Assembly (NCBI GenBank): GCA_045579045.1
Contig: JAZNLL010000027.1
Location: 4,724 to 68,723 of the forward strand
DNA from: Candidatus Avilachnospira sp.
Lineage (GTDB): Bacteria > Bacillota > Clostridia > Oscillospirales > Oscillospiraceae
Length of the DNA stretch: 64,000 nucleotides
Reading direction: 5' to 3'
Part shown: positions 153 to 63,615 of the stretch, piece by piece
How the letters are laid out: the number at the start of each line of letters is the position of its first letter
Numbering within the stretch: the first letter of the stretch is position 1
Made by a program: the position numbers and the translations under genes
Notes under the pieces: model-generated
Told to the model about the DNA's origin: nothing
The model's database searches: none
What the model saw: the letters and a program-made list of their open reading frames with translations, nothing else

Positions 153-689
153 TTAGTGATATTCTTTACCCATCGTCAGAGCCTTCATGTTCAGCTCCAC
201 GAGAGCAGCCTTCTTGGGGGGAACCATGCTGCTGACAACAGCTTCTGTGCCTTCAAAGGACAGCTCGCTGCTATTCTGCAGCACATGACCCACAAGGATC
301 ATATTGGCAAGGGTGGCAATGCCTTCATCTTTTGCCATCTGGGTGGCAGGAATGTAGAACACTTCCACGTCGGTACGCTCAACCTTTTCGTTGATCAGGG
401 CACTGTCCACATAGATCTGACCGCCGGGAACAACGGCGTTCACATATTTCTGCAGAGAGGGCAGGTTCATTGCGATCAGCACATCGGGATTGGTGATAAT
501 GGGAGAACCCACAGGGGTCTCAGACAGGATCACGCTGCAGTTGGCGGTGCCGCCTCGCATCTCGGGACCGTAGGAAGGAAGCCAGGAGACCTGCAGATCT
601 TCCTTCAGACCCTTGTAGGCCAGAAACTTACCGGCAAACAGAACACCCTGTCCGCCGAAGCCGGCAATGAGGATTTGCGTCGTTTTCAT
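153..689 (-). CDS. 2-oxoacid:ferredoxin oxidoreductase, gamma subunit
   Basis: 178 aa. N-terminus ILIAGFGGQGVLFAGK and size are typical of the OFOR gamma subunit. Start overlaps the beta stop. Confidence 0.85.
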   Translation of the reverse strand: MKTTQILIAGFGGQGVLFAGKFLAYKGLKEDLQVSWLPSYGPEMRGGTANCSVILSETPVGSPIITNPDVLIAMNLPSLQKYVNAVVPGGQIYVDSALINEKVERTDVEVFYIPATQMAKDEGIATLANMILVGHVLQNSSELSFEGTEAVVSSMVPPKKAALVELNMKALTMGKEYH

Positions 690-1444
690 TACTTTTCCTC
701 CTTTGCAGCACTTCTGTCCTTATAGACACCGATGGGATAATAAGGCAGCATATCACTTTCCACCCACTCCAATGCCTTCTGGGGAGTCATGCCCCAGTTG
801 GTGGGACAGGCAGAGACCACTTCCACCAGAGAGAAGCCCTTGCCCTCGATCTGGTTCTGGAATGCCTTTTTGATGGCCTTCTTGGCATTGTTGACATTCT
901 TCACATTGTTGACTGCCACACGGGTCACATACTCAGGGCCTTCCAGAGTAGCCAGCATCTCGCAGACACGGATGGGCCAACCGCAGTGGTTGACGTCGCG
1001 TCCGTAGGGAGAAGTCTGGGTCACCTGACCGGGCAGGCTGGTGGGAGCCATCTGACCGCCGGTCATGCCGTAAATGGCATTGTTGACGAAGATGACGGTG
1101 ATATTTTCATTTCTGGCTGCGGAATGGACAGTTTCTGCCATACCGATGGAAGCCAGGTCGCCATCGCCCTGATAGGTAAAGACGATATTTTCGGGACGGC
1201 AGCGCTTGATGCCGGTGGCAACAGCGGGCGCTCTGCCGTGGGGTGCCTCGATCATATCGCAGGCGAAATAATCGTAAGCCATAACGGCACAGCCAACAGG
1301 TGCAACACCGATAGCCTTGCCTTCGATGCCCAGCTCATCGAGAGCTTCAGCGACCAGACGGTGGATAATACCGTGAGGGCAGCCGGGGCAGTAATGGAAG
1401 GGCGCATCCGTCAGGGACTTGGGTTTCTGAAAAACAACTGCCAT
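689..1444 (-). CDS. 2-oxoacid:ferredoxin oxidoreductase, beta (TPP-binding) subunit
   Basis: ORF 689..1492 trimmed to the internal ATG (MAVVFQKPK) at 1444, directly after the alpha stop at 1446. Cys-rich CPGCPHG and GDGD TPP-binding signature. Confidence 0.85.
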
Positions 1445-1445
1445 C

Positions 1446-2507
1446 TCAATACACTCCTTTCTGTGCGTTCCGCAGAGATTCGAGAACCTCATCGGGGCTG
1501 GGGATCATGCCGCCTGCACGGTTGCACAGACCAACGGGCTTCTTACAGTCGGTGGCCAGACGGACATCTTCGATCATCTGACCCATGCTCAGCTCCACGC
1601 TGACAAAGCCATTGACCTTCTCTGCTGCTGCAGCCAGAGCCTTCTTGGGGAAGGGCCACAGAGTGATGGGACGGATCAGACCGGCCTTGATGCCCTCTGC
1701 TCTTGCAGCAACAACTGCGTTCTTTGCCACGCGGGAAGCAATACCGAAGGCCACGACGCAGATTTCGGCATCTTCCATCATGTACTCTTCCCACATAGGC
1801 TCGTTCTCTTCCACAACGGCATACTTTTCAAACCGTTCGAAGTTCTTGGCTTCCAGCTCATCGGGCTTGAGGTACAGAGAGTTGACGATGTTGTGCTTTC
1901 TGGCGCACTCGGTACCGGTCAGAGCCCAGGGCTTTTCATAGGTATTGACTTCAGCATCCTCGAAGGAGATGGGCTCCATCATCTGACCGATGGTGCCGTC
2001 TGCCAAAATCATAGAAATCATGTTGTATTTATCAGCCAGATCAAAACCCTTGATGGTCAGACTGGCCATTTCCTGCACGGAGGCAGGTGCCAGAACGATC
2101 ATTCTGTAGTCGCCGTGACCGCCGCCCTTGGTGGCCTGGAAGTAATCGGACTGAGAAGGCTGGATGCCGCCCAGACCGGGGCCGCCGCGCTGGACATTGA
2201 CCACGAATGCGGGAACATCGGAACCGGCGATATAGCTGAGGCCTTCAGCCTTCAAAGAGATACCGGGGCTGGAGGAAGAGGTCATGACACGGGTGCCGGT
2301 AGCGGCTGCGCCGTAGACCATGTTGATAGATGCGATCTCACTTTCCGCCTGCAGGAACACACCGCCGATCTTGGGCAGCTTCTTTGCCATATAAGCAGCG
2401 ATCTCTGTCTGAGGGGTAATGGGATAGCCAAAGTAGTGACGGCAACCGGCACGGATGGCCGCTTCGGCGATGGCCTCGTTGCCTTTCATAAGTACGCGTT
2501 CTGCCAT
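1446..2507 (-). CDS. 2-oxoacid:ferredoxin oxidoreductase, alpha subunit
   Basis: 353 aa. [30 protein letters not shown] is the canonical POR/KOR/VOR alpha N-terminus. Confidence 0.85.
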
Positions 2508-2519
2508 AATTTGACCTCC

Positions 2520-2726
2520 TTACTTTTCCACGGTGATGATGCAGTCGGGGCACATGGTGGCACAGAAACCACAACCGACGCAGCTTTCTGCATCCTTCAT
2601 CACGGCCGGGGAATAACCCTTTTTGTTGATGGATCCGGTGTCGATGGTCAGACAGCCCTTCTTACAGGCGCTGACACACAGGCCGCAGCCTTTGCACAGA
2701 TCGGTGTTGAATGTGAGCTTTGGCAT
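2520..2726 (-). CDS. 2-oxoacid:ferredoxin oxidoreductase, delta subunit (2x[4Fe-4S] ferredoxin)
   Basis: 68 aa with two CxxCxxCxxxC(P) motifs (CKGCGLCVSAC, CVGCGFCATMCP). AGGAGG RBS upstream. Confidence 0.8.
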   Translation of the reverse strand: MPKLTFNTDLCKGCGLCVSACKKGCLTIDTGSINKKGYSPAVMKDAESCVGCGFCATMCPDCIITVEK

Positions 2727-2746: not shown

Positions 2747-3412
2747 TTACGTAGGTAAATCAAAATATTTTTCCTGCAGTTCCATGGAAAGCACAAGGCC
2801 GTCCAGTTTTCGGGCAACTTCTGCGGTTGCTGCATGCATCCACAGGGGCAGACCGGACAAACGGCAGAGGGAATTCAGTTTCTCTCCGGCACCGGTGACC
2901 GTTTCACAGGTGGTCTCCGGACCCAGATTGGTGTTGTGTACGATGCAGGTGAACTTCATTCCGCAGGCAGCTTCGATCTCACGCATCACTTCCAGGGCTT
3001 CTTCCGCCGTGGTTGTCAGAGGACGGCAGAAGTTGACCACAAAGGCCATGCGATAGTTATTCTCCTCCAGAATGAAGGGGGTAAATCTGCCAAGGGCATA
3101 GGCACCACGGTCATCGCCGCCGATGTCCATAACACCGTAGGTGCTTTGATCCTGCACCAAGCGGTAGCTCTCAGCAGGCAATGCCGGCAGATCCACATTG
3201 GTATTGGCAAACTTGGGAGAGATCAGATCCACACCGGCCTGCTCCAGCACCTTGGCGCTGTCCTTGGTGCGGAAATAGGGATTGACGATATCCAGATCGG
3301 CAATGCAGACCTTCTTCCCCTCCCCTGCCAGCTGCAGGGCATAGTTGACGGCAATGTTGGTCTTGCCGCTGCCATAATGACCTGCGAACAGAGTCAGTCG
3401 TTTGTGTTCCAT
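2747..3412 (-). CDS. P-loop NTPase (MinD/ParA/CooC-like), function unknown
   Basis: Walker A GHYGSGKTNIAV near the N-terminus and DLD Walker-B-like segment. ATG at 3412 (alternative GTG at 3418) abuts or overlaps the upstream synthetase stop (3415..3417). Confidence 0.6.
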   Translation of the reverse strand: MEHKRLTLFAGHYGSGKTNIAVNYALQLAGEGKKVCIADLDIVNPYFRTKDSAKVLEQAGVDLISPKFANTNVDLPALPAESYRLVQDQSTYGVMDIGGDDRGAYALGRFTPFILEENNYRMAFVVNFCRPLTTTAEEALEVMREIEAACGMKFTCIVHNTNLGPETTCETVTGAGEKLNSLCRLSGLPLWMHAATAEVARKLDGLVLSMELQEKYFDLPT

Positions 3413-3414
3413 GA

Positions 3415-5703
3415 TCACAGCTGCTTTCTGATAATTTTACCGCTGGTGGTCTTGGGAAGGCTTTCCCGGAACTCCACGATACGGGGATACTTATAAGGAG
3501 CGGTTCTGCGCTTGACGTAGTCCTGGATCTCCTTTTTCAGCTCGTCGGTACCCTTGAAGTCCTTCACCAGCACAATGCTGGCCTTGACCACCTGACCGCG
3601 AACCTCATCGGGAGCAGCGGAAACACCACATTCCAGAACATAAGGCAGTTCCATGATGACATTTTCGATTTCGAAGGGTCCGATGCGATAGCCGGAGGAC
3701 TTGATGACATCGTCCACACGACCCACATACCAGAAGAAGCCGTCCTCGTCCTTCCACGCCAGATCGCCGGTATGGTAGAAACCGTCGCGCCAGGTTTCTG
3801 CGGTGACCTCCGGGTTGCCCTCGTAGGCATAGCTGAGGCCGCAGGGCAGACCCTTGGAAATATCGATACAAATTTCGCCGTTTTCACCGACACCCACTTC
3901 GTTGCCATCGGCATCCAGCAGATGCACATCGTACAGGGGCACGGGCTTACCCATGGAGCCGATCTTGTGGCTGGAACCGGTCAGGTTACCGATGATCAGC
4001 GTGCTTTCGGACTGTCCGAAACCTTCCATGATCTCCAGACCTGTTGCCTTCTGGAACTGGCGGAAGACCTCCGGGTTCAGCGCTTCGCCGGCGATGGAGG
4101 CATGCTCGATGGAGCTGAGATCGAAGCGGCTCAGATCCTGCTTGATCAGCATGCGGTACATGGTAGGCGGTGCGCAGAAAGTAGTGATGCCGTACTTCTT
4201 GAACAGAGGCAAAATCTTCTCTGCATCGAACCGGTCAAAGTCATAGACAAAGATGGCAGCTTCGCACAGCCACTGGCCATAGAGCTTGCCCCACAGGGAC
4301 TTTGCCCAGCCTGTATCGGAGATGGTCAGGTGCAAGCCATCGGGATTGACCTGATGCCAATACTTGGCGGTGATAAAATGACCCAGCGGGTATTTATAGT
4401 TATGTGCAGCCATTTTGGGATAGCCGGAAGTGCCGGAAGTAAAGAACATCAGCATGGGATCGGAGCCGCAGGGGGCATCCTCCGCTCTTGCAAAATTGCT
4501 GTTGTACATGGTGTATTCTTCGTTAAAGTCGTGCCAGCCTTCCCGGCTGCCGCCGACCATGATCTTCAATGCCAGATCGGGACAAACTGCCGCAGCGGCA
4601 TCCACCTCGGAAGCAACATCGCCGTCAGCCGTACAGACAACGGCTTTTACCTTACCTGCCGTAAAGCGATAGGAGAAATCCTTTTCCTGCAGCTGATTGG
4701 TGGCAGGAATGACCACAGCACCCAGCTTGTGCAGACCCAGAATGGAGAACCAGAACTGATAGTGACGCTTCAGCACCAGCATGACGCGGTCGCCGCGCTT
4801 GATGCCCAGCGCCTTAAAGTAGTTGGCAGCTCTGGCGGATTCCTTTTTGATATCCTTGAAGGTGAAGCGGCGCTCGGTGCCATCCTCGCTCAGATGGAGC
4901 ATCGCCAGCTTTTCCGGCTTCCGCTCTGCCAGCGCATCCACCACATCAAAGGCAAAGTTGAACTTCTCTTCGTTCTTGAAATCAATGGCGGTCAGCTTGC
5001 CATCGGTTTCGGTGGGAATGATGAAGTCGCGGTAGATACGACCCTGATCGTCTTCCCGATGGGACTGACGGACAGGCTTGGCCTCTGTGGCAGCCTGCTC
5101 TTCCATTCTGGCTGCCTGATTGCGCAGAACAATGGCATAGAAGGAGCAGTCCTCACCGTCTACGGCGATCATACCGTGAGGAGTGGAGGAATCGTAGTAA
5201 ATACAGTCACCGGCACGGAGGACTTCCGTATGGCCGCCGATCTGGATGCGCATGCTGCCACTGATGACGATATCACATTCCTGACCTTCATGGGTCACCA
5301 GTTCGATATCTTCATACTCGGCACCGGGACGGTAGTTCAGTTCCATATACAGGGGCAGTGCAATACGGTTGCGGAAGTCTGCTGCCAGGTTGTAGCCCAC
5401 CATATGGTGTGCTTCTTCGATGCGCTGGCCCATGCCCTTTCGAGTCAGAGCATAAGAACGAAGCTTGGGGCTTCGGCCTTCCAGCAGGTCGCTCATATCA
5501 ACGCCAAAAGAAAGGCTGCAATGATACAGGAATGCAATGCTGAGGTTCTGGTTGCCGCTTTCGCACTGCAAGTATTCTTCCACGCTCACGCCGACGCGGG
5601 AAGCCATTTCCTCCACGGTAATACCGGTGATCTCACGAAGTTCGCGAATTCTATCGGCAGTTTCCTTTATTTTATAAGTCATGCCGGTCATGTTCTGTTC
5701 CAT
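3415..5703 (-). CDS. XRE-HTH + cupin + AMP-dependent acyl-CoA synthetase fusion (paralog 1)
   Basis: ORF 3415..5739 trimmed to ATG 5703 (MEQNMTG, GAGGTG RBS). Residues ~10-70 form an HTH_3-like segment (IRELREITGITVEEMASRVGVSVEEY). Residues ~120-200 are cupin-like (GQECDIVISGSMRIQIGGHTEVLRAGDCIYYDSSTPHG). The remaining ~540 aa are an AMP-binding enzyme (FFTSGTSGYPK, YHTGD, SGKIIR). Confidence 0.8.
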   Translation of the reverse strand: MEQNMTGMTYKIKETADRIRELREITGITVEEMASRVGVSVEEYLQCESGNQNLSIAFLYHCSLSFGVDMSDLLEGRSPKLRSYALTRKGMGQRIEEAHHMVGYNLAADFRNRIALPLYMELNYRPGAEYEDIELVTHEGQECDIVISGSMRIQIGGHTEVLRAGDCIYYDSSTPHGMIAVDGEDCSFYAIVLRNQAARMEEQAATEAKPVRQSHREDDQGRIYRDFIIPTETDGKLTAIDFKNEEKFNFAFDVVDALAERKPEKLAMLHLSEDGTERRFTFKDIKKESARAANYFKALGIKRGDRVMLVLKRHYQFWFSILGLHKLGAVVIPATNQLQEKDFSYRFTAGKVKAVVCTADGDVASEVDAAAAVCPDLALKIMVGGSREGWHDFNEEYTMYNSNFARAEDAPCGSDPMLMFFTSGTSGYPKMAAHNYKYPLGHFITAKYWHQVNPDGLHLTISDTGWAKSLWGKLYGQWLCEAAIFVYDFDRFDAEKILPLFKKYGITTFCAPPTMYRMLIKQDLSRFDLSSIEHASIAGEALNPEVFRQFQKATGLEIMEGFGQSESTLIIGNLTGSSHKIGSMGKPVPLYDVHLLDADGNEVGVGENGEICIDISKGLPCGLSYAYEGNPEVTAETWRDGFYHTGDLAWKDEDGFFWYVGRVDDVIKSSGYRIGPFEIENVIMELPYVLECGVSAAPDEVRGQVVKASIVLVKDFKGTDELKKEIQDYVKRRTAPYKYPRIVEFRESLPKTTSGKIIRKQL

Positions 5704-5721
5704 AATACACCTCAATAAAGG

Positions 5722-5996
5722 CAAAAAAGCCCGTCTCAAAGATTGATTCCTTGAGACGAGCTGTGATTCTTAGCCCGCGGTACCACTCAAATTGCATTTG
5801 CCTCACGGCAAATACCACTCATTGGGTGCCAACACACCCTAAGCACTGACGCAGCTGACGCGTGGAGGTTCTACGGCAAACGCTTTCTTCCTCCCGGCTC
5901 CGGAGCGACAAACTGCAGTTCCTACCATGGCTTGCACCAACCGCCAATTCTCTGAGGCAGAACTTCCGCTGTTTTTCTCCATCCTCGCTTTTGGAT
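5722..5996 (-). promoter_or_regulatory. T-box leader, specifier read as GUC (Val), with its promoter just upstream
   Basis: Promoter: -35 TTGACA (6031..6026), 17 nt, -10 TATGAT (6008..6003). AG bulge AGAGAA plus distal loop GGUUGGUGCAA. T-box core AAUUUGAGUGGUACCGCGGG (5793..5774). Terminator CUCGUCUCAA...UUGAGACGGG + U6 (5760..5723). Specifier GUC at 5909..5907 in the register GAUGGAG...GUC-G-CUCC-GGAG. UGGU bulge implies an A73 tRNA. Confidence 0.85.
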
Positions 5997-6060
5997 GTAG
6001 GAATCATACCACTATTTCAGAAAAATGTCAACACTTAATTCGTTACTGTGCTAAAGTTTA

Positions 6061-8328
6061 TTAGAGCTTATTGCGCTGGATCTTACCGGAGATCGTCTTG
6101 GGCAATTCCGTACGGAACTCCACGATACGGGGATACTTGTAGGGAGCCGTTCTGGTCTTGACGTAGTTCTGGATCTCCTTCTTCATTTCTTCGGTACCTT
6201 CGGTACCGGGAACCAGCACGATACAGGCCTTGACGACCTGACCGCGAACCTCATCGGGGGCAGCACAGACACCGCATTCCAGAACGTAGGGCAGTTCCAT
6301 GATGGTGCTTCCGATCTCGAAGGGCCCGATGCGGTAGCCGGAGGACTTGATGACATCGTCGGCACGTCCGACATACCAGTAGTAGCCATCTTCATCCCGC
6401 CAGGCCACATCGCCCGTATGGTACATACCGTCATGCCAGACATCGTTGGTGGCTTCTTCGTTGCGGTAGTAGCCCAGGAAGACACCGCAGGTGGGCTTGG
6501 GATCGGTACGGATGACGATCTCGCCGTTGATACCATCTTCCACAGGGTTGCCGTCGGCATCCACAATGTCGATGCCGTAGCCGGGAACCGGCTTGCCCAT
6601 GGCACCGGGCTTGATGATGGCGCCATAGAGGTTTGCAATACCCAGAGTCATTTCCGTCTGGCCAAAGCCTTCGTGGATCCGCAGACCCGTCGCCTTTTCG
6701 AACTGATAGAAGACCTCCGGATTCAGTGCCTCACCGGCAGTGGTGGCATGGTGGATGGAGCTGAGATCGTAACCGCTGAGATCCTGCTTGATCAGCATGC
6801 GGTACATAGTGGGAGGTGCGCAGAAGGTGGTGATGTTGTACTTTGCGAACATGGGCAGAATTTTCTCTGCATCAAAGCGGTCAAAGTCGTAGGTAAACAC
6901 AGCACCTTCGCAGAGCCACTGGCCGTAGAGCTTGCCCCACAGTGCCTTGCCCCAGCCGGTTTCGGAGATAGTAAAATGCAGACCGTCACGCTCACACAGA
7001 TGCCAGTACTTGGCAGTGACATAGTGACCCAGGGCATACTTATAGGAATGGGTTGCCATCTTGGGATAGCCGGTGGTACCGGAAGTGAACAGCATCAGCA
7101 TGGGATCGCTGCCGCAGGGAGCATCTTCCTCCCGGACATAGCGACGGGAGAAGAGGCTGTACTCCTGATCGAAATCATGCCAACCTTCTGCCTTGCCGCC
7201 GACCATGATCTTCGTCATGCTCATGCCGGCAGTCTTTTCTGCCAGATCGATCTGACCGGCCGTATTGCCGTCAGCCGTGCAGAGAACTGCACTCACATCT
7301 GCAGCCTGGAAGCGGTACACGAAATCCTTTTCCATCAGCTGATTGGTAGCAGGGATGGCGATGGCACCCAGCTTGTGCAGACCCAGAATGGCGAACCAGA
7401 ACTGGTAATGGCGCTTCAGCACCAGCATGACGCGGTCGCCGCGCTTGATGCCCAGAGACTTGAAGTAGTTGGCGCTCTGGCTGGAAGCATCCTTGAAATC
7501 CTTAAAGGTGAAGCGGCGCTCGGTCATGTCATTGGCGACATGGATCATGGCGAGCTTCTCAGGCTCACGGCGAGCGATGGCATCCACTGTATCAAATGCG
7601 AAGTTATAAGTATCTTCGTCGGAGAAGGTAATATTCTGCAGCGCACCGTTTTCGTCTTCCTGTGCATTGACAAACTTGTCGCACAGCAGCTTCTGCTGAG
7701 ACTTGCCCTTGCGGCTCAAACCGGTATACAGAGGCTGGTCGGTGGTATCAGAAGCCATAATCATGGACAGGAACACGCAGTCCTGACCGTCAATGGCCAG
7801 CTGACCGTGAGGGGTGGAGGACTTGAAGAAGATGCTGTCGCCTTCACGCAGAGTCTCTTCATGGTCCCCGACCTTGATCCGCATAGCACCCTTGATGACC
7901 AGATTGTATTCCTGACCGGCATGGGTAACGGTATGGATGGGCTTATTCTGCAGTTCCTCGGAATATTTGTAGGTAACCCAGTAAGGAGTTGCCAGCTTCT
8001 TGCGGAACATGGGAGCCACGTCCTGAATGATAATGCCATCCTCACTGGCAGTCACCAGACCCTTGCCGCGGCGAGTCACTGTATAGCCGGACAGCTTGGC
8101 GCTGTGGCCTTCCAGCAGAACAGTAATCTCAACACCGAAAACCTTTGCGCACTTATGCAGGAACGTAAAAGGCAGATCCACCGTGCCGGTTTCGTACTGA
8201 CGGTAGCTTTCTTCCGAAACCTCGGTCAGCTCTGCCATCTTCTGAGTGCTGTAACCCAAAATGTCACGCATACCCTGAATACGTGCGGCGATATCCATCA
8301 GCTGTGTTGTGGGATTCATGTTACTCAT
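6061..8328 (-). CDS. XRE-HTH + cupin + AMP-dependent acyl-CoA synthetase fusion (paralog 2)
   Basis: ORF 6061..8505 trimmed to ATG 8328 (MSNMNPTT); the upstream part of the ORF is the T-box leader. Same three-part architecture as 3415..5703 and collinear with it (LFTSGTTGYPK, YHTGD, SGKIQR). Confidence 0.8.
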   Translation of the reverse strand: MSNMNPTTQLMDIAARIQGMRDILGYSTQKMAELTEVSEESYRQYETGTVDLPFTFLHKCAKVFGVEITVLLEGHSAKLSGYTVTRRGKGLVTASEDGIIIQDVAPMFRKKLATPYWVTYKYSEELQNKPIHTVTHAGQEYNLVIKGAMRIKVGDHEETLREGDSIFFKSSTPHGQLAIDGQDCVFLSMIMASDTTDQPLYTGLSRKGKSQQKLLCDKFVNAQEDENGALQNITFSDEDTYNFAFDTVDAIARREPEKLAMIHVANDMTERRFTFKDFKDASSQSANYFKSLGIKRGDRVMLVLKRHYQFWFAILGLHKLGAIAIPATNQLMEKDFVYRFQAADVSAVLCTADGNTAGQIDLAEKTAGMSMTKIMVGGKAEGWHDFDQEYSLFSRRYVREEDAPCGSDPMLMLFTSGTTGYPKMATHSYKYALGHYVTAKYWHLCERDGLHFTISETGWGKALWGKLYGQWLCEGAVFTYDFDRFDAEKILPMFAKYNITTFCAPPTMYRMLIKQDLSGYDLSSIHHATTAGEALNPEVFYQFEKATGLRIHEGFGQTEMTLGIANLYGAIIKPGAMGKPVPGYGIDIVDADGNPVEDGINGEIVIRTDPKPTCGVFLGYYRNEEATNDVWHDGMYHTGDVAWRDEDGYYWYVGRADDVIKSSGYRIGPFEIGSTIMELPYVLECGVCAAPDEVRGQVVKACIVLVPGTEGTEEMKKEIQNYVKTRTAPYKYPRIVEFRTELPKTISGKIQRNKL

Positions 8329-8349: not shown

Positions 8350-8612
8350 AATAAAAAAACGCCTCAAGAATTTCTTCTTGAGACGAGTCATTCTATACCC
8401 GCGGTACCACTCAAATTGCAGCCGTAGCTGCCACTTCAGACTCCAATAAGTCCTATCCCTTAACGCGGGCAAACGGGAAAGCCTGGCAGCATCTGCTCGG
8501 CTCACCGGCTCGGAAGTGATGGGCTTTCGGGCAACAAACCGTCGACTCGCACCAACCGTCGACTCTCTGAAGATTCATACACCTAGCCGTCTTCGTCACA
8601 GCCTTTTTCGAT
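8350..8612 (-). promoter_or_regulatory. T-box leader, specifier read as AUC (Ile), with its promoter just upstream
   Basis: Promoter: -35 TTGACA (8649..8644), 17 nt, -10 TAGATT (8626..8621). K-turn/base GACGAAG, AG bulge AGAGAG, distal loop GGUUGGUGCGA. Specifier AUC at 8520..8518 in the register AUC-A-CUUC-CGAG, identical to the thrS leader. T-box core (8417..8398). Terminator hairpin + U7 (8388..8353). Confidence 0.85.
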
Positions 8613-8719
8613 ATGCCCATAATCTACCACATTTCTTTTTCCTTGTCAATTCTTTTTTTGTTTAAAGCGAAAGAATTTTTCTTCTTGACAAATTGCAAGG
8701 TTTGTGATTAAATGCTTTC

Positions 8720-8991
8720 ATACACATTAGAAAAAACGTTGACGGAAAATCCTTTCTGTTCAGAAGCTTCAGAGAGCCGGTGGCTGCTGCGAACCGGTGC
8801 GGAGAACAGATCGGTCTGCTTCCTGAGTTGGCTCTGTGAACCCGTTTCGGACGGTCAGTAATGGAGCCCGGCCTCCTCCGTTACCGGGATAGGACTTACT
8901 GGAGTCCGATGAGAGACCCCGTTCCGGGGTAATCAGGGTGGTACCGCGAATAATTTTCGTCCCTGAGGTCTTGTGACCTCAGGGATTTTTT
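8720..8991 (+). promoter_or_regulatory. T-box leader, specifier probably CUG (Leu), with its promoter just upstream
   Basis: Promoter: -35 TTGACA (8685..8690), 17 nt, -10 TTAAAT (8708..8713). Base GACGGAA, AG bulge AGAGAG (8771..8776). F-box CCGUUA (8878..8883). T-box core AAUCAGGGUGGUACCGCGAA (8931..8950). Terminator CCCUGAGGUC...GACCUCAGGG + U6 (8961..8991). Specifier CUG 8816..8818 in the register CUG-C-UUCC-UGAG; the base after the codon is C rather than the usual purine, so confidence in the codon is lower. Confidence 0.8.
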
Positions 8992-9013: not shown

Positions 9014-10420
9014 ATGAAAATGATCAAACTGTCCGATGTCACCATGAAGCAGGTTGTCGACGGTTTCAGCCTGTCTTTCAAAGAGAAGATCGAACTGGCA
9101 AAGCTGCTGGATAAATTGGGAGTCTGTGTCATCGAACTGGAAGGCATCGAAAACGCCCGCATTGACAGTCTGCGAATCAAGTCCATCGCTTCGTCTGTGA
9201 CTAACAGCATTGTTGCCGTTCCCGTTCAGTTGACGGCAGACAGCCCCGCTCAGGTTTGGTCTGCTCTGCAGCAGGCAAAGCTTCCCCGCCTGCAGGTCTG
9301 CGGTGCCGTCAGCGCCGTTCAGATGGAGTATCTGTTCCACAAAAAGCAGGATGCCATGCAGAAAGCCATCGTGGACACCATCACCGCCTGCAAGGCCTTG
9401 TGTGCCGATGTGGAGTTCCTGGCCGACGATGCCACCCGTGCAGATCCCGCGTTCCTCGCCTCCACTTTGAAAGCCGCTATCGCTGCCGGTGCGACAACCG
9501 TCACCGTCTGTGATACTGCCGGTTCCATGCTGCCTGCCGAGTTCGCTCAGTTCATCAAGGAACTGTATGAGGCCGTTCCCGAAATGAAGAATGTCAATGT
9601 GGGTGTCAGCTGCTGTAACACCCTGTCCATGGCTGATGCCTGTGCCATCGCCGCTGTCGGTGAAGGTGTCACCGAACTGAAATCTGCCGCATATCCCATC
9701 GATGTTGCCAGCCTTGCCAATCTGGCAAAACTGCTGTCCGCCAGAGGGGATTGCTTCCATGTAAGCACTTCCGTTCAGATGACCCAGCTGAGCCGCATCA
9801 TGGACCGTGTGTATCAGATCTGCCAGACCGGTAGCACAAAGGGTTCTGCAATGACCGCAGCCCAGACAGATTCCGATATTTATCTGACCGCCCACGACGA
9901 CGTTGCAGCCGTGACCAAGGTTGCCGAACAGTTGGGTTACGATCTTTCTGAAGACGACAGCATGAAGGTCTATGAAGCCTTCAAGCAGATCGCCGCCAAG
10001 AAAGAACAGGTCAGCTCCAAGGAACTGGATGCCATTATCGCCTCTGCCGCATTGCAGGTACCTCCCACCTACAAGCTGGATACCTTCGTGATTACCTCCG
10101 GCAACACCATTTCTTCCACCGCTCATATCAAGCTGATGAAGAACGGTCAGCCCATGGAAGGTGTTTCCATCGGAGACGGCCCCATCGATGCCGCCTTTGT
10201 TGCCATCGAAAACATCACCGGCTGCCATTACGAGCTGGATGACTTCCAGCTGCAGGCTGTGACCGAGGGCCGCAGCGCCATGGGTCAGACCGTGGTGAAA
10301 CTCCGCAGCGGCGGCAAGGTCTATTCCGGCAAGGGCATTTCTACGGACATTGTGGCAGCCGGTATCCATGCCTACCTGAGTGCTCTGAACAAGATCGTTT
10401 ATGAGGAGGAAGAAGCATGA
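9014..10420 (+). CDS. LeuA/CimA-family (HMGL-like TIM barrel + LeuA regulatory domain) protein with degenerate active site
   Basis: 468 aa, collinear with 2-isopropylmalate synthase. DTTLRDGEQ is replaced by DVTMKQVVD and H-x-H-D-D by SCCNT. The C-terminal GDGPIDAAFVAIENI...GISTDIVAAGIHAYLSALN is a well-preserved LeuA_dimer regulatory domain. Confidence 0.75.
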   Translation: MKMIKLSDVTMKQVVDGFSLSFKEKIELAKLLDKLGVCVIELEGIENARIDSLRIKSIASSVTNSIVAVPVQLTADSPAQVWSALQQAKLPRLQVCGAVSAVQMEYLFHKKQDAMQKAIVDTITACKALCADVEFLADDATRADPAFLASTLKAAIAAGATTVTVCDTAGSMLPAEFAQFIKELYEAVPEMKNVNVGVSCCNTLSMADACAIAAVGEGVTELKSAAYPIDVASLANLAKLLSARGDCFHVSTSVQMTQLSRIMDRVYQICQTGSTKGSAMTAAQTDSDIYLTAHDDVAAVTKVAEQLGYDLSEDDSMKVYEAFKQIAAKKEQVSSKELDAIIASAALQVPPTYKLDTFVITSGNTISSTAHIKLMKNGQPMEGVSIGDGPIDAAFVAIENITGCHYELDDFQLQAVTEGRSAMGQTVVKLRSGGKVYSGKGISTDIVAAGIHAYLSALNKIVYEEEEA

Positions 10421-12930
10421 GACTCTCATTCTCTACCAGAGGCTGGCCCAGCTTAACCTGGGATGAAATGGTAGATACCGCTCTGGACATGGGCTTTACC
10501 GGTATCGAAGTGTATAATCTGCCTAAATTTGATGAGATGCTGGCCAAAGGCGGCCCCTTCCACCAATACCAGACAGCCGCCACTGTTCGTGATCTTCGGG
10601 AAAAGAAGCTGACGATCCCCTGCTTCGACACCTCCTGCGATCTGTCCGCAGATCCCGATGCCGTAGCAGTTCTGACCAATTTGATCGAAATCGCCAAAAA
10701 TGCACAAGTCAAGCACGTAGTCGCCTGCGCGCTGAGCGACAAGGAAGAAGTCGTTCGTGATGCATTATGTCAACTTGTTCCTGTGGCAGAAAAGGCCGGT
10801 GTTTCTCTGCTTCTCAAGACCAGCGGCATCTATGCCGACACCGCCCGTCTGCGGAATATGCTGGATCAGTTCGCCAGCGACAATCTGGGTGCCCTTTGGG
10901 ATGTCCACCATCCTTACCGGGATTTTGGTGAAAGCGGCGATGCCACCATCAAGAACCTGGGTTCCTATGTTTGCCATGTCCACCTGCGCGATTCCGATGA
11001 CGAAGGCACCTATCAGCTCATCGGTGAAGGCACCATGCCCATTGCCGATGTGATGCGTGCCCTTTCCTCCGTCAATTACGATGGTTTCATCTCTTTGGAA
11101 TGGAAGCCGGAATGGCTGGAGGATCTGCAGGACCCGGAGATCATCTTCCCCTACTTCGTCAATTACATGGCCCGGTTCCATTCCACCCGGGGCATGAAGA
11201 AGAAGCTCTATCCCAACCACGACGGTACCGGTCAGTACATCTGGAAAAAGGATGAACTCATCAACCTGACCTTCCCTCAGGTTCTGGACCGTGTGGCAGA
11301 AGAGTTCCCGGACCAGTACTGCTTTAAGTACACCACCCTGGATTACACCCGAACCTATGCCCAGTTCCGCGAAGATGTGGATCGGTTCGCCAGAGCACTG
11401 GTGTCCATGGGCGTCAAGGCCGGCTCCAAGGTAGCCATCTGGGCAACCAATGTGCCTGCCTGGTTCATCACCTTCTGGGCAACTACCAAAATCGGTGCCG
11501 TTCTGGTCACAGTCAATACTGCCTATAAGATTCACGAAGCGGAATATCTGCTCCGCCAGTCCGACACCCACACGCTGGTCATGATCGACAGCTGTCTGGA
11601 TTCCAACTATGCCCGGATCATCAATGAACTCTGTCCCGAAATCGCCAAGACCAAGGCCGGCGATCCTCTCCACTGCAAGAGACTCCCCTTCCTGCGCAAT
11701 GTCATCACCGTTGGCTTCAAGCAGCCCGGCTGTCTGACCTTCGACGAGGCCATGGCAAGATATGAACTGGTCAGCCGGGAGCAGGTCGCTCAGATGGCTG
11801 CCGCCGTCCGTCCCGACGATGTCTGCAACATGCAGTATACCTCCGGTACCACCGGTTTCCCGAAGGGTGTTATGTTAACTCACCACAACGTTGTCAACAA
11901 CGGCAAATGCATCGGTGACCGCATGGGTCTTTCCACTGCCGACCGCATGATGATTCAGGTTCCTATGTTCCACTGCTTCGGCATGACCCTTTCCATGACC
12001 TCCTCCATGACCCATGGCGCCACCATGTGTCCCATGCCCTACTTCTCCGCTACATCTTCCCTCGCCTGCATCAATCAGGAGAAGATCACAGTTTTCAATG
12101 GTGTTCCCACCATGTTCATTGCCATGTTCAACCATCCGGATTACCGGAAAACCGATTTCTCCCATATGCGAACCGGCATCATGGCAGGTGCAGGCTGTCC
12201 TCCCGAACTGATGCGCAGAGCCGCACAGCCTGATGAAATGAACATGTACGGCATTGTCAGTGTTTATGGACAGACCGAATGTGCTCCCGGCAACACCATG
12301 AGTTCCTGGACGGATTCTCTGGAAGTCCGCACCGACACCGTCGGCTATGCCTTCCCCCATGTGCAGTGCAAGATCATCGATCCCGAAACCGGAGAAGAAG
12401 TCGGTCCCGGTGTCAACGGTGAATTCTGTGCCAAGGGCTACAACACCATGAAGGGTTATTACAAAATGCCTCAGGCAACTGCCGACACCATTGATGCAGA
12501 AGGCTGGCTCCATTCCGGCGACCTGGCCTGCAGGGATGAAGACGGCAACTATCGGATCACCGGCCGTCTGAAAGATATGATTATCCGCGGCGGTGAAAAC
12601 ATCTATCCCAAGGAGATTGAGGAATTTATCTACACCCATCCCCAGACCAAGGATGTTCAGGTCATCGGTGTTCCCGACAAGAAATACGGCGAAGAGATCA
12701 TGGCCTGTATCATTCTGAAGGAACCCGGCTCTGTGACCGTGGAAGAAATGACCGCCTACATCAAGGCCAGCATGGCACGGCATAAGGTTCCCAAATACAT
12801 CTCCTTCGTGGACAGCTTCCCCATGAATGCCGCAGGTAAGATTCTGAAGTATAAAATGCGCGAAGCTGCCGCTAAGGAACTGGGCTTGGTCGGTGACGGT
12901 GCCGATACGGCAGGCCCCGGCAAAGTATAA
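10417..12930 (+). CDS. Xylose-isomerase-like TIM barrel (sugar-phosphate isomerase/epimerase fold) fused to an AMP-dependent acyl-CoA synthetase (paralog 3, FadD-like)
   Basis: 837 aa. The N-terminal ~260 aa have AP_endonuc_2-like features (MRLSFSTRGW..., HVHLRD, ISLEW). The C-terminal ~570 aa have YTSGTTGFPKG, GYYK, SGD, GRLKD, GKILK. Start overlaps the upstream stop (ATGA). Confidence 0.8.
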   Translation: MRLSFSTRGWPSLTWDEMVDTALDMGFTGIEVYNLPKFDEMLAKGGPFHQYQTAATVRDLREKKLTIPCFDTSCDLSADPDAVAVLTNLIEIAKNAQVKHVVACALSDKEEVVRDALCQLVPVAEKAGVSLLLKTSGIYADTARLRNMLDQFASDNLGALWDVHHPYRDFGESGDATIKNLGSYVCHVHLRDSDDEGTYQLIGEGTMPIADVMRALSSVNYDGFISLEWKPEWLEDLQDPEIIFPYFVNYMARFHSTRGMKKKLYPNHDGTGQYIWKKDELINLTFPQVLDRVAEEFPDQYCFKYTTLDYTRTYAQFREDVDRFARALVSMGVKAGSKVAIWATNVPAWFITFWATTKIGAVLVTVNTAYKIHEAEYLLRQSDTHTLVMIDSCLDSNYARIINELCPEIAKTKAGDPLHCKRLPFLRNVITVGFKQPGCLTFDEAMARYELVSREQVAQMAAAVRPDDVCNMQYTSGTTGFPKGVMLTHHNVVNNGKCIGDRMGLSTADRMMIQVPMFHCFGMTLSMTSSMTHGATMCPMPYFSATSSLACINQEKITVFNGVPTMFIAMFNHPDYRKTDFSHMRTGIMAGAGCPPELMRRAAQPDEMNMYGIVSVYGQTECAPGNTMSSWTDSLEVRTDTVGYAFPHVQCKIIDPETGEEVGPGVNGEFCAKGYNTMKGYYKMPQATADTIDAEGWLHSGDLACRDEDGNYRITGRLKDMIIRGGENIYPKEIEEFIYTHPQTKDVQVIGVPDKKYGEEIMACIILKEPGSVTVEEMTAYIKASMARHKVPKYISFVDSFPMNAAGKILKYKMREAAAKELGLVGDGADTAGPGKV

Positions 12931-13004: not shown

Positions 13005-13718
13005 ATGAAATGGAAAGAATTTTTTGCCGGTGTTAAAGCCGGCATGCCGGTATGCATCGGATATTTCTCCGTCAGCTTCGGTTTCGGTGCCATGGCTGTG
13101 GCACAGGGTCTGACCATTTGGCAGGCCATTCTGATCTCTGCCTCCAATCTGACCAGCGCAGGTCAGTTCGCAGGTCTGACGGTCATTTCCGCCGGTGCAG
13201 CCATTGTAGAAATGATACTGACCCAGCTGGTCATCAACAGTCGCTATGCACTGATGAGTCTTGCTCTGGGCCCTCGGTTCGGCCCCAATGTAGGAACAGG
13301 AAAGCGGCTTTTTGCCGCCTTCTTCAACACAGACGAGGTCTTTGCTCTGGGCATGTCCAGAGGTAAAAACCTGACAACCGCCTTCTTTGTCGGTGCCGGT
13401 GTGATCTCTGCCGTTGGCTGGACAAGCGGTACCGCCATGGGAGCCATCGCCGGCTCTCTGCTGCCGGAATCTATTCGTATGGCACTGGGTGTCATGCTCT
13501 ACGGTATGTTCATCGCCATTGTCGTTCCACAGGCAAAAGAAGAAAAGCCGCTTTTGGCTTCCGTGGTGCTGGCATTGGTCTTTAGCTGCCTGTTTGCATG
13601 GCTTCCCCTTCTGAAGCAGGTCTCTGCCGGTCTGGCAATCGTCATCTGCACGGTTGCAGCAGCTTCCGTGTGTGCCCTGCTGTTCCCCGTGAAGGAAGAA
13701 GAGGAGGCTGCACCATGA
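13005..13718 (+). CDS. azlC: AzlC-family branched-chain amino acid transport protein
   Basis: 237 aa polytopic protein. N-terminus FFAGVKAGMPVCIGYFSVSFGFGAMA...SNLTSAGQFAG is typical of AzlC. Confidence 0.8.
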   Translation: MKWKEFFAGVKAGMPVCIGYFSVSFGFGAMAVAQGLTIWQAILISASNLTSAGQFAGLTVISAGAAIVEMILTQLVINSRYALMSLALGPRFGPNVGTGKRLFAAFFNTDEVFALGMSRGKNLTTAFFVGAGVISAVGWTSGTAMGAIAGSLLPESIRMALGVMLYGMFIAIVVPQAKEEKPLLASVVLALVFSCLFAWLPLLKQVSAGLAIVICTVAAASVCALLFPVKEEEEAAP

Positions 13719-17600: not shown

Positions 17601-17674
17601 TGGAGCGGGATACGGGAGTCGAACCCGCCTATGCAGCTTGGGAAGCTGCCGTTCTACCGATGAACTAATCCCGC
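17601..17674 (-). tRNA. tRNA-Gly (anticodon CCC)
   Basis: Cloverleaf folds by hand: acceptor GCGGGAU/AUCCCGC, D arm GUUC/GAAC, anticodon arm GCAGC-UUCCCAA-GCUGC, T arm GCGGG-UUCGACU-CCCGU, discriminator U, encoded CCA. A terminator hairpin follows (17567..17600). Confidence 0.9.
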
Positions 17675-39092: not shown

Positions 39093-39261
39093 CCATTCCT
39101 ATATTTTTAACCTCACACAGTATACTATTTTATGCATAAAAATACTGCCCAAAGTTTCGTTATGTTGCACAGATAATTTGTGCAGAATTTTGTAATTTTC
39201 CCCAAGATTTTTAGAGTTGCTTTATTGACAGAAATGCACTTTTCAGTTAAGATAAGTGCAA

Positions 39262-39362
39262 GGACTTCTGTAACTGACGGAAATGTGGAGCACCACAGGG
39301 GAGCAGAAGTTGATATTTGCCGACCGTCTGGGCTGTTCTGAGGAGATTTCCGTCAGAACTGC
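39262..39362 (+). promoter_or_regulatory. ZTP (pfl-motif) riboswitch with terminator expression platform
   Basis: P1 CUUCUG (39265..39270) / CAGAAG (39304..39309). ACUGACGGAAAUGUGGAGCACCACAGGGGAGC core. 3' subdomain CCGACCGUCUGGGC (39319..39333) whose CCGUC can pair with GACGG. GUUCUGA...UCAGAAC hairpin + U-rich tail before purO. Confidence 0.8.
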
Positions 39363-45814: not shown

Positions 45815-46000
45815 AATAAAAAGCCCCGTGCAAACTCTGCCGGGACAAACATTTCCCCAAAAGGGAACTTGCTCTGTCCTTTTGCCTGAGAGATTCGGCT
45901 TTCGCCTTGCACCTTCGGCACCCATTTTCGGGATTCTCCAGAGTTTCCTATTCCGGCAGTCACCTTGGCTTCTGCCGAAAATCAAAGGATTTTTTCAATT
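45815..46000 (-). promoter_or_regulatory. Singlet glycine riboswitch leader with intrinsic terminator, upstream of glyA
   Basis: Promoter: -35 TTGACA (46036..46031), 17 nt, -10 TATAAT (46013..46008). Aptamer CUCUGGAGAA...UGCCGAAGGUGCAA...CUCUCAGGCAAAAGGACAGAG (45942..45871). Upstream hairpin GGCAG...CUGCC. Terminator GUCCCGGCA...UGCACGGGGC + U5AU4 (45845..45812). Confidence 0.8.
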
Positions 46001-63523: not shown

Positions 63524-63615
63524 GGAGTGGTATCGAAGAGGTCATAACGAGCACGACTGGAAATCGTGTGTACGTCAAAAGCGTACCGAGGGTTCGAATC
63601 CCTCCCACTCCGCCA
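63524..63615 (+). tRNA. tRNA-Ser (anticodon GGA)
   Basis: Acceptor GGAGUGG/CCACUCC, anticodon arm CACGA-CUGGAAA-UCGUG, long variable arm, T arm GAGGG-UUCGAAU-CCCUC, discriminator G, encoded CCA. Promoter TTGACA-17-TACACT upstream and a terminator hairpin (63620..63652) downstream. Confidence 0.9.

Follow-up and report, generated by a model that had tools for sequence, protein, structure and literature searches.

Tandem acyl-CoA synthetases with an N-terminal XRE-cupin module in a Candidatus Avilachnospira contig appear to have arisen by joining of a widespread gene pair

A stretch of 64,000 nucleotides from a Candidatus Avilachnospira sp. contig (JAZNLL010000027.1, positions 4,724 to 68,723; the whole stretch is called the window here) includes two tandem genes, named A and B, in which an XRE-type helix-turn-helix (HTH) domain and a cupin barrel precede a complete acyl-CoA synthetase (ACS). 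As judged from comparison of the sequences, the new finding is that this fusion is the joined form of a widespread two-gene unit, the first gene of which belongs to a distinct XRE-cupin lineage. With regard to its function, we tentatively favor the explanation that the module is a ligand-sensing and/or dimerising/oligomerising regulatory domain that acts on the enzyme, transcription being left to T-box leaders.

Gene B (6061..8328, minus strand) encodes 755 amino acids starting at MSNMN, and gene A (3415..5703, minus strand), its paralogue with the same four domains, encodes 762 amino acids starting at MEQNM; both open reading frames (ORFs) were trimmed to the first ATG after the respective T-box leaders. 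An earlier note on this DNA had described two tandem ORFs of these sizes, each with an HTH, a cupin and a full AMP-binding enzyme, and profile searches with Pfam confirmed all of these domains, in the order XRE-HTH, Cupin_2, AMP-binding and AMP-binding_C, above the curated cutoffs. The matches in B were HTH_3 at residues 21-70 (24.0 bits, cutoff 23; HTH_19 and HTH_31 also match), Cupin_2 at 135-188 (E 5.9e-10), AMP-binding at 251-621 (E 1e-60) and AMP-binding_C at 671-749. Those in A were HTH_19 at 18-76 (34.4 bits, cutoff 30.2), Cupin_2 at 134-191 (E 2.6e-12), AMP-binding at 258-613 (E 2e-59) and AMP-binding_C at 678-756. The proteins are, as the note had it, diverged yet collinear over their full length (59% identity across 758 columns). 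On the minus strand, the B protein is composed of the five-helix HTH domain (residues 9-74, 8107..8304; Pfam and AlphaFold2, AF2), with a net charge of about -4; the cupin barrel with its leading strands (residues 79-192, 7753..8094; Pfam Cupin_2 and an AF2 predicted local distance difference test score, pLDDT, of 85-98), with paralogue-specific sites in residues 79-125; a junction (residues 193-240, 7609..7752) that is poorly conserved and partly disordered according to orthologue identity, dN/dS and pLDDT, and is the counterpart of the N-terminal extension in unfused synthetases; and the ANL acyl-CoA synthetase domain (residues 241-755, 6064..7608; Pfam, motifs and PDB matches to 3etc and ACSM2A). 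The A protein has its HTH domain at residues 11-76 (5476..5673; Pfam HTH_19 and alignment to B), its cupin barrel with THEGQE ... TPHG at residues 81-194 (5122..5463; Pfam Cupin_2 and motifs) and its synthetase domain at residues 248-762 (3418..4962; Pfam and motifs), also on the minus strand. While the cupin barrel of the note stood, the segments quoted for it (G-x5-H and P-x-G-x2-H) did not: motif 1 has a single His in T-H-x3-E (H136 and E140 in B), and motif 2 is P-H-G, with the His within the PxG (H174 in B). The ANL core motifs A3, A5, A7 and A10 are intact in both proteins as TSGT(T/S)GYPK, GFGQ(T/S)E, YHTGD and PKTxSGKI, the versions in B being TSGTTGYPK, GFGQTE, YHTGD and PKTISGKI.

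An exhaustive search with the N-terminal 235 amino acids identified many standalone homologues of about 185-195 amino acids, with 31-42% identity over the whole module. The motifs F-[ST]-F-T-F-L-[YH]-K-C-A, S-H-x-G-Q-E and P-H-G-M are common to the standalone forms and the module of the window. An AMP-binding gene is located directly downstream of the genes for P0153, P0154, P0156 and P0342, with a 4-nt overlap, 12-nt gaps or, in the case of P0342, a 119-nt gap, and P-loop and ferredoxin genes are also present at one such locus. A scan of metagenomes with a narrower alignment of standalone modules added 80 loci, of which 75 are split and 5 are fused. Those split loci that continue for 600 nt or more downstream of the module gene were considered informative (n = 69), and in 64 of them (93%) a Macs-type ACS gene follows directly on the same strand, mostly at -20 to +54 nt. 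The split ACS genes that were looked up encode 550-561 amino acids, which corresponds to about residues 196-755 of B. Since the two lengths match, the sequences indicate that the window proteins arose when the two genes of a conserved pair were joined end to end without an added linker; they also place the N-terminal module in an XRE-cupin lineage of its own. No T-box was detected when split loci were scanned with Rfam, and therefore the association with branched-chain amino acid (BCAA) T-boxes is not general but specific to the clade of the window. The earlier note had asked how widespread the fusion is and whether it always sits behind BCAA T-boxes; widespread it is, but the constant link to these leaders does not hold.

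In a neighbor-joining tree of the modules, which is poorly resolved, fused forms are found in several deep branches. One fused ORF (L143, 1256-3514) is near-identical in its first 165 or so residues to the split module of L109 and of the fused type in the remainder, which points to a probable assembly chimera or recombinant. Its position nested among split modules was considered as a sign of the fusion history and set aside because it looks chimeric. With a poorly resolved tree and a probably chimeric L143, we draw no conclusion on how many times fusion occurred.

The fused form itself is common. Scanning of species-representative genomes returned 371 related stretches, and the best 80 of these 371 were examined. 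They share 81-96% identity, cover residues 1-755 in nearly all cases, and come from metagenome-assembled genomes of Faecousia, Oscillospiraceae and Acutalibacteraceae from ruminant gut. Apart from some loci that end early at contig ends, nearly all of the approximately 80 have the same gene order, in which a LeuA-like gene and a TIM-barrel/AMP-binding fusion run in one direction and B, A, a P-loop gene and a ferredoxin oxidoreductase of the ketoisovalerate type (VOR) in the other. The module is present on both synthetases in every locus of this set where they are complete. The 755-amino acid form is also found in more than 120 protein-database clusters at 88-97% identity, annotated merely as "AMP-binding protein", and remoter fused forms are represented by P0132, P0155 and P0165. 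The last of these is the second copy (4493-6769) of a tandem fused pair that another lineage carries upstream of an aminotransferase gene (L089, 2111-6769). P0165 keeps the HTH-cupin triad and has degenerate synthetase motifs (A3 is QSYSYGMAK, the Asp of A7 is Thr, and the Lys of A10 is Val); judged from its sequence, this paralogue may have lost catalysis and act solely in regulation. One B orthologue (L050, 8001-10265) has a single in-frame stop codon and is either a pseudogene or an assembly error. A full-text literature search found no paper on a fusion or a pair of XRE-cupin and acyl-CoA synthetase. The fusion is thus real, conserved, uncharacterised and generically annotated.

Identity among orthologues was 0.70-0.72 in the HTH, 0.85-0.88 in strands 79-125, 0.82-0.83 in the cupin core, 0.49-0.57 in the junction and 0.83-0.93 in the synthetase. 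The dN/dS values, obtained for both paralogues from about 80 species, were 0.10-0.13 for the HTH, 0.07 for strands 79-125, 0.09 for the cupin core, 0.22-0.35 for the junction and 0.05-0.09 for the enzyme; they are rough, as dS is saturated (1.1-1.7), and only the relative ranking of the domains was used. Residues R16, R21, Y42, G74, R86, P115, H136, E140, G147, L160, G163, D164, H174, G175 and A178 are invariant across 100 diverse sequences. At the ligand site of the cupin, this includes the His-Glu-His triad (H136/E140/H174), R86 and D164, and Y122 is near-invariant. Because the module has lower dN/dS values than the junction and includes these invariant residues, the sequences indicate that all of it is under purifying selection and functional. 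Sites that are conserved within but different between A and B account for 32% of residues 79-125 and for 3-9% elsewhere, which suggests that residues 79-125 are a specificity surface, a ligand pocket or a pairing interface. The first cupin hairpin, which bears paralogue-specific sites, also has K-R-R at positions 94-96 (B numbering) in the standalone modules of split loci L091-L170, with R95 in 65 of 65 and R96 in 63 of 65. In place of this near-invariant R-R, residues 95-96 of the window proteins are S-E in B and E-A in A.

These data bear on the least probable of the alternatives, a neutral or decaying fusion that is a functionless relic of accidental stop-codon loss, or a protein translated from a start after the cupin. 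The weak conservation of the junction would suit such a relic, as would the overlapping or adjacent stop and start codons of the split arrangement, which make fusion easy. We consider it very improbable: dN/dS is 0.07-0.13 in the modules of both paralogues across those species, full length is conserved in the database clusters, a T-box terminator and a ribosome-binding site directly precede the N-terminal ATG, and there are conserved sites specific to each paralogue. The T-box leaders stop 47 nt (B) and 46 nt (A) before the N-terminal start codons. This position, the recurrence of the full architecture and the purifying selection on the N-terminal module demonstrate that the fusion is genuine and not an artefact of ORF calling, and they speak against a true start after the cupin, which the earlier note had allowed for.

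The AF2 model of residues 1-200 has a pLDDT of 87.9 and consists of five helices, in B at residues 6-24, 28-34, 39-47, 54-64 and 68-73, followed by the cupin barrel. The highest ranking structure in a Foldseek search was the uncharacterised XRE-cupin protein 1y9q (TM 0.65-0.72); the next ranks were taken by HppE, Psf4, HEPD and MPnS (E about 1e-14 to 1e-8), the HppE-type matches having a TM of 0.41-0.49 and a root-mean-square deviation of about 11 Å. The module has what defines XRE-cupin proteins, an N-terminal HTH_3/XRE domain and a Cupin_2 barrel with the invariant H-x3-E ... P-H. XRE-cupin factors such as PuuR, PauR, ErfA, PsdR and 1y9q have the same domain order and size (about 190 amino acids, a five-helix HTH, and Cupin_2 with H-x3-E ... 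P-H) and are encoded beside the metabolic enzyme genes that they serve, as is the split module. Unlike them, the module of the window is covalently fused to its enzyme, its HTH is strongly acidic with Glu/Asp at the reading positions, and no palindromic operator was detected at the loci compared. With respect to PuuR, it also has an 11-residue extra strand (residues 109-120).

The HTH keeps the determinants of its fold, namely R21 and E46, the counterpart of the R10-E35 pair in the 434 repressor, and the buried residues M31, A32, Y42 and G48. The polar or basic surface by which helix 2, helix 3 and the next loop would read DNA is missing in the lineage. The net charge of residues 9-74 is negative in 100 of 100 sequences (mean -5.8, range -13 to -2), with group means of -6.3 for split, -4.5 for fused, -4.2 for B orthologue and -3.6 for A orthologue modules. 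The lineage consensus has S-x-E-E-Y-x-x-x-E-x-G and D-L-P-F, with Glu/Asp or hydrophobic residues at the canonical XRE reading positions; the RR of helix 2 and the T-H-S-A-I-S of helix 3 in Escherichia coli PuuR, the sequence that served as the verified comparison, align with E-E and x-E-E-Y. The loop after helix 3 is D-L-P-F, where that of the 434 repressor is basic. Exposed positions of helices 2 and 3 vary freely even between B orthologues with an overall identity of 81% or more. Between the divergent T-boxes, only the -35 and -10 elements of the two promoters are conserved in 61 aligned loci, and no inverted repeat, shared palindrome or operator was detected near the promoters by the 61-locus alignment, a repeat search and a palindrome scan with shuffles. 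The palindrome candidates in this region were promoter hexamers and A/T-tract pseudo-palindromes only. From this indirect but consistent evidence the HTH keeps its fold and its DNA-reading surface looks lost.

The earlier note had proposed a DNA-binding one-component regulator layered on the T-box. In its explicit form, the protein would be a synthetase and also a sequence-specific DNA-binding repressor of its own operon, the cupin ligand or the acyl-adenylate/CoA state toggling operator binding, as in BirA, in addition to T-box control. Several observations speak for such a trigger enzyme: HTH_3/HTH_19 score above the Pfam cutoff, the regulator-type 1y9q is the closest structure (TM 0.65-0.72), the module gene heads the synthetase operon in 93% of the split loci, the HTH is under purifying selection (dN/dS 0.10-0.13), and orphan standalone members exist. 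Three of the latter were noted, one followed by RecR (L087, 314-952), one followed by an O-antigen-ligase-like gene and IF3 (L151, 1273-1839) and one with no synthetase detected downstream (L158, 3809-4363). Characterised XRE-cupin proteins are small-molecule-responsive, DNA-binding local repressors of neighboring enzyme genes that bind palindromes as dimers (PMC7901475), in agreement with the note's statement that HTH plus cupin is a standalone repressor architecture, and FadD1 offers an example of an acyl-CoA ligase that serves as a transcription factor (PMC12754631). However, the HTH is acidic throughout the lineage, its reading-head positions are Glu/Asp or hydrophobic and variable among close orthologues, D-L-P-F stands in place of the basic loop after helix 3, the 61 loci revealed no conserved operator near either promoter, and 1:1 stoichiometry with an abundant enzyme would be unusual for a repressor. 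We therefore consider this autorepressor doubtful and the regulator of the note unsupported by these observations, which agree better with its fallback of a repurposed allosteric or oligomerisation domain.

Fusions with a comparable logic exist. BirA has an N-terminal HTH and an adenylate-forming ligase, and its adenylate controls DNA binding; BzdR joins an XRE HTH to an acyl-CoA sensor that resembles an enzyme. The likeness of the bifunctional enzyme-repressors BirA, NadR and PutA, and of BzdR, to the window proteins is one of logic only, as their catalytic or sensor folds are unrelated, and their HTHs demonstrably bind DNA whereas that of the window looks degenerate on its reading surface. 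It is unlikely that a BirA-like trigger system operates here, in which occupancy of the cupin or the adenylation site would switch the protein between catalysis and nucleic-acid binding; the ligand of such a switch would be the branched acid, acyl-AMP, acyl-CoA or the end-product amino acid.

Since the XRE fold and the cupin ligand site are kept and the basic/polar DNA-reading surface is lost, we favor action on the enzyme instead of on DNA. HppE, Psf4, HEPD and MPnS provide a structural precedent for units with HTH-like and cupin domains that bind no DNA. The module goes back to a small XRE-cupin gene that in most relatives directly precedes the synthetase gene of the same operon; in the clade of the window the two were joined end to end, and duplication of the fused gene would then have given rise to A and B. 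We infer an allosteric or oligomeric role, and a ligand, as follows. The module would be a tethered ligand sensor and/or dimeriser that tunes synthetase activity, possibly in feedback response to the amino acid, 2-oxoacid or acyl-CoA of the branch, strand region 79-125 would decide which ligand is recognised or whether the protein pairs with itself or with its paralogue, and the T-boxes would handle transcription. The model of the full-length protein (pLDDT 73, predicted TM score 0.52), in which residues 193-211 have a pLDDT below 50, makes the module look like a tethered unit on a flexible linker. This full-length prediction, which the earlier note had suggested, gave no confident docking.

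Several points weigh against enzyme control by the module. In the full-length AF2 model the module is not placed on the enzyme with confidence, the ligand is hypothetical, and the reading is built on sequence and predicted structure. The split gene pair fits the pattern of XRE-cupin local repressors equally well, and the few standalone modules with no adjacent synthetase suit a trans-acting factor. Net charge and residue type are indirect evidence, as some HTH proteins use unusual surfaces, and among the reference domains used for comparison (434, P22, SinR and PuuR), the PuuR sequence is the verified one. Operators could also be located at other genomic sites, or escape detection because they are very short or divergent.

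A further alternative is that the cupin is a second, metal-dependent (His-Glu-His) catalytic domain whose substrate would be the acid, acyl-CoA or 2-oxoacid and for which the HTH would form a cap like that in HppE, so that the protein would be a bifunctional enzyme. The invariant H136, E140, H174, R86 and D164 with near-invariant Y122, the Foldseek matches to HppE, Psf4, HEPD and MPnS, and the tight operon coupling and fusion with the enzyme would agree with it. These enzymes share with the module an XRE-like helical domain, which in them is no DNA binder, and a 2-His-1-Glu cupin. This triad is present in the module, but it is common to the regulator PuuR and does not discriminate. The fold does not superpose well: TM values are low, the domains are oriented differently, and sequence matches are weak (about 20% identity). 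In addition, the phosphonate chemistry of HppE-type enzymes depends on O2 and would hardly be expected in a gut anaerobe, and these enzymes belong to phosphonate clusters, while the neighbors in the window are VOR, the P-loop gene and T-boxes, with no phosphonate genes; nor does a chemical step appear to be missing between acid activation and reductive carboxylation. A catalytic cupin is consequently quite improbable.

The synthetase domain matched PDB 3etc, Macs of Methanosarcina acetivorans (MA4008), with 605 bits (E 8e-181) over residues 3-517 of a 519-residue query. The best NCBIfam model was MbcS (NF047394), with 432 bits for A and 426 bits for B, below the equivalog cutoff of 850. As this is the best family and the scores are under its cutoff, the catalytic part is, by sequence, a short branched-chain acyl-CoA synthetase of the Macs/MbcS type, related to MbcS but no equivalog. 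The window proteins have the catalytic domain and the ANL motifs in common with Macs (3etc) and Staphylococcus aureus MbcS, whose known substrates match Ile and Val; these two enzymes, judged by an NCBIfam profile length of 525 and a PDB chain length of 580, are too short to include an HTH-cupin module. MbcS is selective for 2-methylbutyrate and isobutyrate and has almost no activity on isovalerate (PMC10026030), and 2-methylbutyrate is a substrate of Macs (PMC10455477). These preferences agree with the Ile and Val specifiers of the T-boxes. By homology and T-box specifiers, the bases of the assignment, B is probably a 2-methylbutyrate--CoA ligase of the Ile branch and A probably an isobutyrate--CoA ligase of the Val branch. 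Judging from the context, their role would be amino-acid synthesis through a VOR-type enzyme and not, as for MbcS, fatty-acid priming.

The T-box leader of B (8376..8608, minus strand; Rfam, 102.5 bits) has the specifier AUC (Ile), and the ATC is conserved in 71 loci. That of A (5749..5994, minus strand; 82.5 bits, E 1.4e-17) has GUC (Val), which is GTC or GTA in 35 loci; its score is under the Rfam gathering threshold of 93, so default annotation overlooks it. Across related loci the specifiers are ATC before B, GTC or GTA before A, and CTG or CTC (Leu) in the divergent leader, and these synonymous changes confirm the codon assignments. The Val T-box is absent from loci with a B-A gap shorter than 150 nt, about half of the related loci, and because of this absence A is presumably co-transcribed under the Ile T-box there. 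The promoters are of the sigma-70 type, TTGACA-17-TAGATT for B (8621..8649, minus strand), recognised from the sequence and the conservation profile of 61 loci, and TTGACA-17-TATGAT for A (6003..6031, minus strand), recognised from the sequence.

Downstream of A, on the same strand, lie a 223-amino acid P-loop NTPase gene of the ParA/CbiA/NUBPL-like type, which belongs to the same operon (2747..3418; weak Pfam matches, and synteny where loci reach far enough downstream) and a 2-oxoacid:ferredoxin oxidoreductase (153..2726; Pfam POR_N, PFOR_II, TPP_enzyme_C and POR, a 2x[4Fe-4S] ORF, and synteny) with delta (2520..2726), alpha (1446..2507), beta (689..1492) and gamma (153..689) subunits. The P-loop gene is conserved between the synthetases and the oxidoreductase, also occurs near split module/synthetase pairs (L082, L102 and others), and may encode an Fe-S or assembly factor of the VOR enzyme. 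Since T-boxes, the P-loop gene and the oxidoreductase accompany the synthetases, the simplest reading of the locus is that it salvages branched-chain fatty acids and converts them to Ile and Val by CoA activation followed by reductive carboxylation; we infer both the substrates and the direction, in which the products of A and B would feed the ferredoxin-dependent oxidoreductase in the carboxylating sense. A full-text literature search found no report of T-box control of a ketoisovalerate:ferredoxin oxidoreductase.

On the plus strand, a third, divergent T-box (8730..8967; Rfam) with the Leu specifier CUG precedes an operon for a LeuA-like protein of 468 amino acids (HMGL-like and LeuA_dimer, 9014..10420), an 837-amino acid fusion of a xylose-isomerase-like TIM barrel (AP_endonuc_2) to a complete AMP-binding enzyme (10417..12930) and AzlC (13005..13718). 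The TIM-barrel/synthetase protein, the second unusual synthetase fusion at the locus, is syntenic in nearly all of the approximately 80 loci that reach far enough upstream and may be the isovalerate (Leu) counterpart of A and B. Elsewhere, the window has a ZTP riboswitch (39260..39340, plus strand), a glycine riboswitch (45864..45951, minus strand) and two tRNA genes (17604..17674, minus strand; 63524..63612, plus strand).

The control of short-chain acyl-CoA synthetases is commonly ascribed to transcription and lysine acetylation. A dedicated XRE-cupin partner, separate or fused and conserved in hundreds of genomes of anaerobes, would represent a novel means of controlling these enzymes and, if purely allosteric, an unrecognised class of regulatory subunit distinct from lysine acetylation. 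If instead a BirA-like trigger were true, transcription would respond jointly to tRNA charging, by way of the T-box, and to the supply of precursor, sensed by the enzyme itself. The lineage would also be a clean natural example of an XRE HTH that keeps its fold while apparently giving up DNA reading, and the automatic label "XRE family transcriptional regulator" would in that case be misleading. In the window, the partner is attached to the enzymes that open the proposed route from branched-chain fatty acids of the gut or rumen to Ile and Val, a process of importance in ruminant nutrition and gut ecology.

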